Virus record (IMG/VR): IMGVR_UViG_3300044645_001661
Source of the DNA: a virus
Taxonomy: Duplodnaviria; Caudoviricetes
Length of the DNA: 64,000 nt
Direction: 5' to 3' (one strand)
Positions 21,719 through 36,037 of the stretch are shown here, piece after piece; positions within the stretch are counted from its first letter, which is position 1; every line of letters begins with the position of its first letter. A program made the translations under genes and the position numbers. The notes beneath the pieces are model-generated. The model saw only the letters and a program-made list of their open reading frames with translations, was not told the DNA's origin and made no database searches.

Positions 21719-21793
21719 GGGACTGTCGCCTATTGGTTAAGGCCCACTGCTTATAACGGTGTGAACTGAGTTCAATTCTCAGCAGTCCTACCA
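21719..21793 (+). tRNA. trnI: tRNA-Ile(TAT), copy 1 (CCA encoded)
   Basis: GGGACTG/CAGTCCT-ACCA; CACTG-CTTATAA-CGGTG. Confidence 0.85.
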
Positions 21794-21794
21794 A

Positions 21795-21866
21795 GGGAGT
21801 ATAGCTTAATGGTTAGAGCGGGCTCCTTATAAGGGCTTAGTCTGGGTTCAACTCCCAGTATTCCCA
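21795..21866 (+). tRNA. trnI: tRNA-Ile(TAT), copy 2
   Basis: GGGAGTA/TATTCCC; GGCTC-CTTATAA-GGGCT. Confidence 0.85.
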
Positions 21867-21896
21867 CTCACTATTCGCTATTTGCGAATAGCAAAT

Positions 21897-34018: not shown

Positions 34019-34546
34019 ATGCGTAAAGAAGGATATCAAATTCCTGAAGTTGAATTTATTTGTCGTGAAAATGGTGAGTTTTTAGTCCGTAGTTCTGTAG
34101 ATTATTTTGCTGGAAAGCGTGTGGTCATTTTTAGCCTGCCTGGTGCTTTCACTCCTACTTGCAGTGCCTATCAGTTACCTGGATTCGAAGAGAAATACGA
34201 CGACTTTATTGGTAGTGGCATCGACGCTATTTACTGCATCTCTGTTAATGATGGGTTTGTGATGAATGCTTGGGCACAAGATCAAAACATCAAGAACGTA
34301 ACTCTTATCCCTGACGGCAATGCATATTTCACACGTTCTATGGGACAATTAGTGATGAAGTCTAACCTTGGTTTTGGTCAGCGTTCTTGGCGTTATGCTG
34401 CTGTGGTTGACAATGGTATTATTGAGAAACTGTTCGAAGAACCTGGCAAAACTGATAATGCATTAGAAGATCCTTACGGTGAAACTACTCCAGAAAAAGT
34501 TTTGGAATATGTAAAATCTACTGTCCGCGAAGTAGCAACAGTTTGA
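34019..34546 (+). CDS. Peroxiredoxin (Prx5/type II)
   Basis: FSLPGAFTPTCS, SVNDGFVMNAW, RSWRYA; GGAGG SD favours 34019 over 34007. Confidence 0.92.
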   Translation: MRKEGYQIPEVEFICRENGEFLVRSSVDYFAGKRVVIFSLPGAFTPTCSAYQLPGFEEKYDDFIGSGIDAIYCISVNDGFVMNAWAQDQNIKNVTLIPDGNAYFTRSMGQLVMKSNLGFGQRSWRYAAVVDNGIIEKLFEEPGKTDNALEDPYGETTPEKVLEYVKSTVREVATV

Positions 34547-34605
34547 ATATAGGAGGGTTTATCCCTCCTTTTTTAATAAATATAATGCAGAGTTTGGTTA
34601 AAATA

Positions 34606-35304
34606 ATGCTTATAGATCTTCATAACTTCTTTAAATTCTTTGATGAAAATAATCCAAAGCATGTTGCTGCAGTAGAGCAATTTGAAAAGGATTTGCTTTT
34701 GAAGGCACAAGAACTAATGCAAGATGAAGCAAATTGGGTGAGAATTTTTAGAACAAAAGAAAACAAACCTCAAGCAGATATTTTACCAGTTCCATTTTAT
34801 CCACAAACAGATAATTATAGAGATGCAGATAGAACTTGTAACTCTTCTGCTTGTGCAATGTGTCTCGAATATTTTAAACCAGGCACATTAAAAGGATCTA
34901 AGGGCGATGACGCCTATGTACAAAAAGTTTTTTCAATCGGTGACACAACTGATCACTTGGTTCAAACCAAAGTTCTTGCGTCATACGGCATTAAATCCAG
35001 TTTTTCCTACAGTCTTTCTTTTGCTGATCTTGATAGAGAGCTTGCCGCTGGTAGACCTGTTGTTATTGGCATTCTTCATCGTGGGACTCTATCTAATCCC
35101 ACAGGAGGACACATGGTAGTTGTGATTGGCAAAACTCCTGCTGGAGATTATGTAGTTAATGATCCTTATGGTTCATTGAATGATGGATATACTGAGGCAG
35201 TACAAAATGGTAAAGGTGCTGTTTATAAACGTAGTGAATTAACACGTAGATGGTGTCCAGCAGGAAATGATGGGTGGGGTAGAATTTTTGATGTAAAAAA
35301 GTAG
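34606..35304 (+). CDS. C39-like cysteine peptidase (short product of a frameshifted gene)
   Basis: QTDN...TCNSSACAM (Cys), GGHMVVVIG (His), VNDPYG (Asp); ends in GTA AAA AAG TAG. Confidence 0.8.
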   Translation: MLIDLHNFFKFFDENNPKHVAAVEQFEKDLLLKAQELMQDEANWVRIFRTKENKPQADILPVPFYPQTDNYRDADRTCNSSACAMCLEYFKPGTLKGSKGDDAYVQKVFSIGDTTDHLVQTKVLASYGIKSSFSYSLSFADLDRELAAGRPVVIGILHRGTLSNPTGGHMVVVIGKTPAGDYVVNDPYGSLNDGYTEAVQNGKGAVYKRSELTRRWCPAGNDGWGRIFDVKK

Positions 35305-35367
35305 AGTCAACACCACAACAAAAAATCCCCCAATGTGGTGTTGATTTAATTAAAGAATTTGAGGGAT
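35295..35367 (+). other. Programmed -1 frameshift signal (slippery heptamer plus pseudoknot)
   Basis: A_AAA_AAG at 35295-35301; stem TCAACACCAC/GTGGTGTTGA (35307-16/35335-44); loop ATCCCCCAA pairs with TTGAGGGAT (35359-67). Confidence 0.8.
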
Positions 35368-35783
35368 GCCATTTAAATGCTTATCCCGACCCATTAACTG
35401 GAGGTCTACCAATAACTATTGGATGGGGAAGTACTAGAGATTTTAATGGGCAACCATTTAAACTTGGAAAAAAAGTCACTCAAGATTATGCTGATAAATT
35501 ACTTTTATTTGATCTTGAACAAAGATTTCTTCCTTCTTTACAAAAGATTCCTTATTGGAGTGAAATGACTGATAATCAACATGGAGCACTTTTCAGCTTT
35601 GCTTATAATCTCGGTGCTGGTTTTTACGGTGGAAGCGGATTTAATACTATCTCTCGCAACCTTCGTGAGAAGAATTGGTCAGCAATCCCAGAGACATTAA
35701 AGATGTATCGTAATCCTGGAAGTAATGTAGAATCGGGATTATTGAGAAGACGTACTGCTGAAGGAAAACTATGGATATCTTAA
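35301..35783 (+). CDS. GH24 (T4/P21-type) lysozyme domain in the -1 frame, with no start codon of its own
   Basis: LIKEFEGCHLNAYPD...ITIGWG, ALFSFAYNLG, GLLRRRTAEGKLW; frame is open from 35292 and its first ATG (35565) lies after the catalytic residues. Confidence 0.88.
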   Translation, partial: VESTPQQKIPQCGVDLIKEFEGCHLNAYPDPLTGGLPITIGWGSTRDFNGQPFKLGKKVTQDYADKLLLFDLEQRFLPSLQKIPYWSEMTDNQHGALFSFAYNLGAGFYGGSGFNTISRNLREKNWSAIPETLKMYRNPGSNVESGLLRRRTAEGKLWIS

Positions 35784-36037
35784 TCGTCTGACTTTGCTTT
35801 ATAAGCAATTAACAATCCAATAGCAACTAACAATTGTTTAATACCCTCATCCTGTGATTTATTACAATCTATGGGTGGGGGATTTTTTAATTCTCCTTTT
35901 ACGTTAGCATAATGCATTGTGCCAGGAATCATCAGATTGCAACTGGCAATACTAAAACCAATATACCCAAACAACACAACAAATGTTGAGTATATGAGTA
36001 CTGTCAGTGGTGAGATTTTTCTTGGTTGTGGATCCAT
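35780..36037 (-). CDS. Small two-TM membrane protein
   Basis: Hydrophobic LTVLIYSTFVVLFGYIGFSIA and QLLVAIGLLIAY segments. Confidence 0.55.
   Translation of the reverse strand: MDPQPRKISPLTVLIYSTFVVLFGYIGFSIASCNLMIPGTMHYANVKGELKNPPPIDCNKSQDEGIKQLLVAIGLLIAYKAKSDD

Follow-up and report, generated by a model that had tools for sequence, protein, structure and literature searches.

A probable programmed -1 ribosomal frameshift joining a C39-like peptidase to a start-less GH24 lysozyme in T4-like cyanophages

The stretch of DNA analysed here (IMG/VR record IMGVR_UViG_3300044645_001661, Caudoviricetes; 64,000 nucleotides (nt), hereafter the window) is a piece of the genome of a T4-like cyanophage. 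Its nearest named relatives are the phages S-SRM01 and S-PM2, with a nucleotide identity of about 73%, and sequences near-identical to it were found in lake-water metagenomes from 20 studies; the phage is a freshwater one. Flanked by hli, ferredoxin, peroxiredoxin and psbA genes, the window carries on its plus strand a locus that encodes two cell-wall hydrolase domains, a C39-like peptidase and a GH24 lysozyme. The lysozyme domain, the only one of the phage, is devoid of a start codon and is very probably made only via a -1 slip at the end of the peptidase gene. This start-less arrangement is shared by the phage of the window, S-PM2 and about 50 distinct relatives.

The 0-frame open reading frame (ORF) extends from the ATG at 34606 to position 35304 and encodes 232 amino acids (aa), followed by a TAG; its translation is the short product. 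About 50 aa at its start form a helical N-terminal module (IDLHNFFK...NWVRIFR, 34606–34764), which is followed by a C39-like peptidase that matches PF13529 (Peptidase_C39_2) over positions 1–143 of the 143 of the profile, with 50.9 bits for a cut-off of 24. In the alignment of the peptidases, Q66 is invariant whereas C77, C82, H168 and D185 are nearly invariant, and these Gln, Cys, His and Asp columns are candidate catalytic residues. No solved relative of the peptidase was retrieved by a sequence search of the PDB.

The peptidase frame ends with GAT GTA AAA AAG TAG, so that the slippery heptamer A_AAA_AAG (35295–35301) lies in the X_XXY_YYZ phase and is directly abutted by the TAG stop (35302–35304). 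The -1 frame is closed by a TGA at 35289–35291 and is open from 35292 to 35783. These two stops therefore confine any change of frame to 13 nt that contain the heptamer; in most loci, the opening of the -1 frame precedes the 0-frame stop by 10 nt. The continuation in the -1 frame (35301–35783) consists of 160 codons and a TAA and encodes a linker of about 13 aa and a complete GH24 lysozyme. Indeed, it matches PF00959 over positions 1–125 of 125 (E 1.7e-22, 80.5 bits for a cut-off of 22.3). It also aligns, including the FEG motif, with solved GH24 lysozymes from their residue 4–7, which indicates that the GH24 domain begins about 13 codons after the heptamer. The first ATG, GTG or TTG of this frame (35565) comes only after the N-terminal lobe, which holds the EFEG motif. 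The predicted products are the 232-aa peptidase and a 392-aa peptidase-lysozyme, the predicted trans-frame junction peptide of the latter being ...DVKKVESTPQQK. A preliminary description, made from the letters of this locus alone, had claimed an in-phase heptamer directly before the stop, a lysozyme frame open over its whole length with no start before 35565, and a complete GH24 domain in the -1 frame; the frame check and the Pfam match bear it out on these points.

Immediately downstream, RNAfold predicts a hairpin of 14 bp with a 16-nt loop (35304–35347, plus strand; 35304–35317 paired with 35334–35347). Its perfect 10-bp core (35307–35316 with 35335–35344) begins 5 nt after the heptamer, where the preliminary description had placed it, and the extended helix begins 2 nt after the heptamer. 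Depending on the segment folded, its free energy (dG) ranges from -18.7 to -20.2 kcal/mol; at -20.2, the z score against dinucleotide shuffles is -3.6 and one of 200 shuffles folds as well. This is the most stable of the 372 overlapping 62-nt segments of the gene pair and belongs to the top 1.5% of the 64 kb. In the alignment of the stem family of the window (20 distinct sequences), 98.6% of the cells are paired, and both partners have changed in four pairs (A-U to G-C, C-G to U-A). The observed covariation score was reached by none of 500 shuffles, and slid registers pair at 35–47%. The hairpin was also considered as a terminator and rejected as such, as the consensus scan makes no such call and T-runs are absent from the other stem families.

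The locus was compared with 160 IMG/VR loci and eight GenBank phage loci (cited below by L numbers where needed), which yielded 109 distinct junction sequences. In 51 of them, the lysozyme is in the -1 frame and has no start at the junction. All 51 possess an in-phase heptamer, A_AAA_AAG in 50 and U_UUU_UUU in phage S-CAM7, and all possess a hairpin (median dG -17.1 kcal/mol, median z -3.4) whose first pair is located 0–7 nt, nearly always 2–7 nt, after the heptamer. In a second class of 11 junctions, the lysozyme start overlaps the peptidase stop (ATGA, GTGA, TTGA). The heptamer is found in nine of these, and the hairpin varies with the start: the five ATG-overlap loci have a shortened linker and no hairpin (z -1.0 to +0.5), and the GTG- and TTG-overlap loci have an intermediate one. 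Nine in-frame fusions have neither heptamer nor hairpin (z -1.0 to +0.6), and six other in-frame fusions have both (z -2.0 to -4.4). The remaining 32 junctions, with a peptidase only (24) or with the lysozyme as a separate gene (8), have essentially no hairpin and no KK tail; a single heptamer was found among them, in L111, an in-frame fusion with seven A's (A7) that is misclassified in this group. In none of the 109 junctions is the peptidase stop directly followed by a lysozyme in the +1 frame. The sole +1 case, DSL-LC02, corresponds to a separate gene located 604 nt downstream and provided with its own ATG; in this phage (L004), the peptidase and lysozyme genes are separated by an inserted 127-aa ORF with a signal-peptide-like N-terminus (2137–2520). 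The comparison of these classes indicates that the heptamer and the hairpin co-occur, and do so where recoding is needed.

The hairpins belong to at least five unrelated stem families: that of the window (CAACACCAC/GUGGUGUUG), GCCAACUAAC/GUUAGUUGGC, ACUCUACUCC/GGAGUAGAGU, GCUCYAC/GURGAGC and CCCCACUAU/AUAGUGGGG. Their 5' arm always adjoins the heptamer, whereas their 3' arm uses different codons of the first helix of the lysozyme, family by family, and the EFEG codons lie at variable distances (44–80 nt). This fixed position combined with varied stems and distances argues that what is selected is a hairpin placed right behind the heptamer. Judging from these alignments, it is the structure of the hairpin that is conserved and not its sequence.

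Two named phages illustrate this diversity. In S-PM2, the junction reads GAT GCA AAA AAG TAA and is followed, after a 5-nt spacer, by a 9–11-bp stem (AGCUCUACU/AGUAGAGCU) whose sequence is unlike that of the window. The arrangement is identical in two separate records of this phage (AJ630128/NC_006820 and LN828717). Annotation gives its lysin as a fragment of only 72 aa, so that for S-PM2 the remark of the preliminary description on a 72-aa fragment holds. In S-CAM7 (L007, NC_031927; locus 1992–2070), the junction reads GTT TTT TTT CCA CAG TAG, with an in-phase U_UUU_UUU within a T8 run, a 5-nt spacer and then a hairpin GUAGAACC/GGUUCUAC (dG -16.7 kcal/mol, z about -5); here the lysin is annotated as a 90-aa fragment.

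In ACG-2014f-type phages and many marine contigs, the peptidase and lysozyme domains lie in one frame. Some of these fusions (L006, L089–L091 from ACG-2014f, and L112) carry an in-phase GCA/GTA AAA AAG and a hairpin 5–6 nt downstream, and their -1 frame ends immediately (AAA AAA GTC TGA). Slipping would therefore truncate their product to the peptidase, the inverse of the logic proposed for the window. Other fusions (L107–L110, from four separate assemblies, and L111) have A7 instead of A6, with the domains in frame and the hairpin kept. They read ...DVKKVE..., which is identical to the predicted trans-frame junction of the window; L111 shares its metagenome with the A6 loci L082 and L125, and a homopolymer error is possible in its case. 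In an AlphaFold model of the L107 fusion, the frameshift site is placed in a disordered linker (predicted local distance difference test (pLDDT) score about 33) between two folded domains; overall confidence in this model is moderate (pLDDT 71.8), and residues 51–101, including the region of the candidate catalytic Cys, are below 50. Yet another organisation was observed in S-CREM1 (L003, OP535465; 1489–2670), a reverse-order fusion in which the lysozyme comes first, followed by the IDLHNFF module and the peptidase.

The start-less part of the lysozyme is under strong purifying selection: over the 70 codons that separate FEG from the sole ATG, the ratio of nonsynonymous to synonymous substitution rates (dN/dS) against 17 relatives is 0.07–0.27, with synonymous sites near saturation, which indicates that this part is translated. 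Furthermore, this lysozyme is the only PF00959 match per genome in complete S-PM2 and in two relatives that are 83–84% complete, and a tblastn search of the 64 kb found no second copy of either the peptidase or the lysozyme domain. The integrity of the A6 run was checked on Logan contigs, i.e. on assembled and not raw reads: over 35150–35500, contigs from four independent lake-water metagenomes all have A6, with zero inserted or deleted letters.

The preliminary description had also proposed two additional stimulators, an H-type pseudoknot and an upstream Shine-Dalgarno (SD)-like tract. For the former (possible second helix, 35325–35367, plus strand), the complementarity itself was found again, the loop ATCCCCCAA (35325–35333) being complementary at 8 of 9 positions to TTGAGGGAT (35359–35367), which belongs to the EFEG codons. 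In most close relatives, all nine positions match: the loop AUCCCUCAA is perfectly complementary to UUGAGGGAU, with runs of 7–9 and p values up to 0.03. The loop of the window differs from theirs by a U-to-C change, and the resulting central C.A mismatch leaves no Watson-Crick run longer than 5 (loop shuffling, p 0.2). No pair of this helix is changed on both sides, and the complementarity is absent from the other hairpin families. The pseudoknot was therefore rejected as a general, conserved stimulator, as it is confined to the hairpin family of the window and is weakest in the window; in that family, it may add to stimulation. The upstream tract (GGGTGGGGT, 35272–35280, plus strand) ends 15 nt upstream of the heptamer and corresponds to codons of the conserved GWGR motif. 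It matches GGAGG poorly and is equally present in loci without frameshift, including peptidase-only ones, so that nothing independent backs its proposed role as a stimulator. Upstream SD-like stimulators, located 10–14 nt 5' of the slippery site, are specific to dnaX and not a universal feature.

Altogether, we give a probability of roughly 85% to the reading that a programmed -1 ribosomal frameshift, real, conserved and apparently undescribed, joins the peptidase to the lysozyme. The core of the preliminary description, namely a -1 shift on A_AAA_AAG promoted by a 3' hairpin and leading into a start-less GH24 domain, thus receives strong comparative support, because the heptamer is in phase in 51/51 start-less junctions, the hairpins sit at a fixed distance, differ in sequence, show compensatory changes and have disappeared from loci whose lysozyme starts with an ATG of its own, the start-less coding part is under purifying selection, and in-frame fusions exist in which the junction peptide is the predicted one. 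Several points nevertheless weigh against this reading. The conservation of the heptamer could to a large extent reflect shared ancestry and a conserved KK tail, although the peptidase-only relatives have no such tail. In the window itself, the helix of the pseudoknot is interrupted, and the SD-like tract lacks independent support. A search of Rfam found no frameshift element even at E up to 10, but only chance-level miRNA or snoRNA matches; the proposed signal would work like known elements without being a sequence member of the DnaX or IS element families. In addition, the variants with A7 in frame or with their own start show that recoding is dispensable in some lineages. Finally, the sequence alone is compatible with slippage of the RNA polymerase on the A6 run.

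According to this last explanation, the RNA polymerase would add an A in the A6 run, leading to a minority of A7 mRNAs in which both domains are in one frame, with no ribosomal slip. The natural A7 DNA variants, which are in frame and evidently viable, are in line with it, and the T8 run of S-CAM7 is long enough for appreciable polymerase slippage. However, efficient slippage of bacterial RNA polymerases typically involves runs of about 8–9 or more, so that six A's are short for it. Moreover, it needs neither the X_XXY_YYZ phase nor a nearby hairpin, whereas both are present in all 51 start-less junctions, the hairpin being kept by compensatory change and being absent from just those loci in which a start codon removes the need for recoding. 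Transcriptional slippage is therefore considered improbable.

A free lysozyme could also be translated independently, without any fusion, by re-initiation after the TAG or from a non-canonical start (ATC, ATT or similar). Sister lineages do use stop-start overlaps (ATGA, GTGA and possibly TTGA) at the same place, which indicates that translational coupling is used within the peptidase-lysozyme family. In the window, however, the frame has none of the three usual starts ahead of the EFEG lobe, and no alternative start or SD sequence is positionally conserved across the 51 loci. A stable hairpin covering the putative restart region would hinder initiation, and in the loci with a real ATG overlap, the linker is shortened and the hairpin has been lost. 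Furthermore, most stand-alone lysozymes with their own start are headed by the N-terminal module, of which a restart product would be devoid. We regard this explanation as unlikely, to about the same degree as transcriptional slippage. Least credible of all is an artefact or decay, i.e. an assembly or homopolymer error at the frame break or a lysozyme pseudogene. A single-base difference in an A-run is certainly a classic type of error, and annotators have treated the S-PM2 gene as a fragment, but the same break recurs in 51 distinct junctions from many studies, including both records of S-PM2; for the sequence of the window itself, it is carried by contigs assembled from four independent metagenomes. 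A pseudogene is excluded by the low dN/dS, synonymous change being near-saturated.

If the frameshift reading is right, a single late-expressed lysin gene would be decoded in two ways. Ribosomes would start at the ATG at 34606 and translate the N-terminal module and the C39-like peptidoglycan peptidase. At A_AAA_AAG, with tRNA-Lys in both P and A sites, they would meet the 14-bp hairpin, 3–5 nt further downstream, which would resist unwinding. A fraction of them would then slip back by one base, re-pair on AAA AAA and enter the -1 frame, pass through the short flexible linker into the GH24 muramidase and produce the 392-aa peptidase-lysozyme. The ribosomes that do not slip would terminate at the TAG at 35302 and release the 232-aa peptidase. 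We infer the ribosomal nature of the slippage and its efficiency, as well as the action of both products in lysis; the fixed ratio between peptidase and peptidase-lysozyme put forward in the preliminary description would be pure conjecture.

A broader proposal can be made only tentatively, and we find it more doubtful than not: the heptamer-hairpin cassette might be an evolvable two-isoform switch, kept in both polarities by selection on the ratio of peptidase to peptidase-lysozyme. The slip would add the lysozyme in S-PM2-like loci and would truncate the product to the peptidase in ACG-2014f-like loci and L112, and S-CAM7 would have independently substituted U_UUU_UUU and a new hairpin. Both isoforms would carry the N-terminal module, which would likewise head every non-fused lysozyme that has its own upstream ORF. 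Were this proposal true, the ratio could time or localise lysis in cyanomyoviruses.

The N-terminal module matches no Pfam family and had no match in the ESM Atlas. It also heads stand-alone lysozymes of other cyanophages: the separate-gene lysozymes of DSL-LC02 and DSL-LC03 begin with the same module as the peptidase of the window (47% identity with the N-terminus of the DSL-LC03 lysozyme, E 2e-16), and the L124-type lysozymes begin with a similar-looking helical one. Besides 34606–34764 in the window, this observation covers the loci L004 (2524–3195), L005 (2267–2935) and L124 (1290–1904). Stop-start coupled lysozymes (S-SRM01 type) do not have it. This distribution suggests that both enzymes need the module and that the lysozyme obtains it through frameshifting or fusion; its role could be targeting, regulation or wall binding.

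Upstream of the peptidase gene, a hairpin followed by a T-run and resembling an intrinsic terminator (34551–34569, plus strand) closes the peroxiredoxin gene, is also found in relatives and constitutes the 5' boundary of the lysin unit. As the TTG at 34543 lies inside this terminator and as the homologues begin with M-x-IDLHNFF, it was ruled out as a start. Immediately after the terminator hairpin, 30 nt 5' of the ATG at 34606, lies an ATAAATA motif (34576–34582, plus strand), which we take to resemble a T4-type late promoter (consensus TATAAATA). The motif is present in 43 of 104 distinct upstream regions, exactly at -30 in 27 of them, and at -28 to -31 in most close relatives; late expression of the lysin gene would fit with it. 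No sigma-70-like site, and hence no candidate internal promoter of this kind, was found on the plus strand within the peptidase-lysozyme gene. On the other side of the locus, a convergent ORF of 85 aa on the minus strand (35780–36037) overlaps the lysozyme stop by its end. Its product contains a long hydrophobic segment, with a second, short one at the C-terminus; in S-SRM01 and S-PM2, this position is likewise taken by small genes on the minus strand. The 85-aa product could be a holin-like membrane partner of the lysin. Elsewhere in the window, ARAGORN called 11 tRNA genes, none of them for tRNA-Lys, including a tandem pair (21719–21867) in which both genes are called tRNA-Ile with anticodon TAT.

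The reading proposed here would explain why lysins of S-PM2, S-CAM7 and many metagenomic cyanomyoviruses are annotated as start-less fragments or split genes, and it provides a corrected gene model, a 232-aa peptidase plus a peptidase-lysozyme of about 392 aa. To our knowledge, cyanomyoviruses have no recognised T4-like e or t genes. With the proposed reading, the poorly understood lysis caused by these abundant aquatic phages would become testable in the culturable S-PM2 on Synechococcus WH7803. The loci also form a natural comparative series on how recoding sites arise, move and vanish; it spans loci that depend on the frameshift, fusions in frame that have the cassette or lack it, stop-start coupled and separate genes, and a reversed domain order. 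In the accessible full-text literature that was searched, no frameshift was found described for cyanophage lysins or for any other endolysin. Phage genes with -1 frameshifting so far include those of the tail chaperone, the T7 capsid and some polymerases or transposases; a cell-wall hydrolase would join this short list of gene classes in which it is conserved. The mechanism itself is textbook dnaX/IS-type -1 frameshifting; what is apparently undescribed is its use in a lysin gene.

A close parallel is E. coli dnaX (tau/gamma), which has the identical in-phase A_AAA_AAG and a stable stem-loop a few nt downstream and yields two products that have their N-terminus in common. Its logic is even reproduced by the ACG-2014f-type and L112 fusions, where reading on in the 0 frame makes the long form and a shift to the -1 frame meets a stop immediately. 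However, the shift proposed for the window lengthens the protein by a catalytic domain, whereas that of dnaX truncates it. Moreover, the window has no convincing upstream SD stimulator, the gene encodes a phage cell-wall hydrolase and not a polymerase subunit, and its cassette is known from sequence only. In the transposase genes of the IS3 family (e.g. orfA-orfB of IS911), A_AAA_AAG and a downstream structure likewise fuse an ORF to a start-less one, within a narrow interval between the stops of the two frames, and the short and fused proteins differ in activity; the gene family and the biology are different, and in the window the 0-frame stop abuts the heptamer. Tailed phages reportedly have a frameshift in their tail assembly chaperone genes G/GT (Xu, Hendrix and Duda 2004). 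These genes and T7 10A/10B resemble the locus as conserved -1 frameshifts in late genes of double-stranded DNA phages that give C-terminally different proteins. They are structural or assembly genes, whereas the window joins two enzymatic lysin domains. AAAAAAG is quoted in PMC3483164 as one of the sites that these genes use. Among lysins, Lys170, CD27L/CTP1L and LysA of mycobacteriophage Ms6 are endolysins whose single gene yields two products by internal in-frame initiation. Like the locus of the window, they are single lysin genes giving two isoforms that share a part. However, they rely on a second start codon and share the C-terminus, whereas the window would rely on recoding, with a shared N-terminus.

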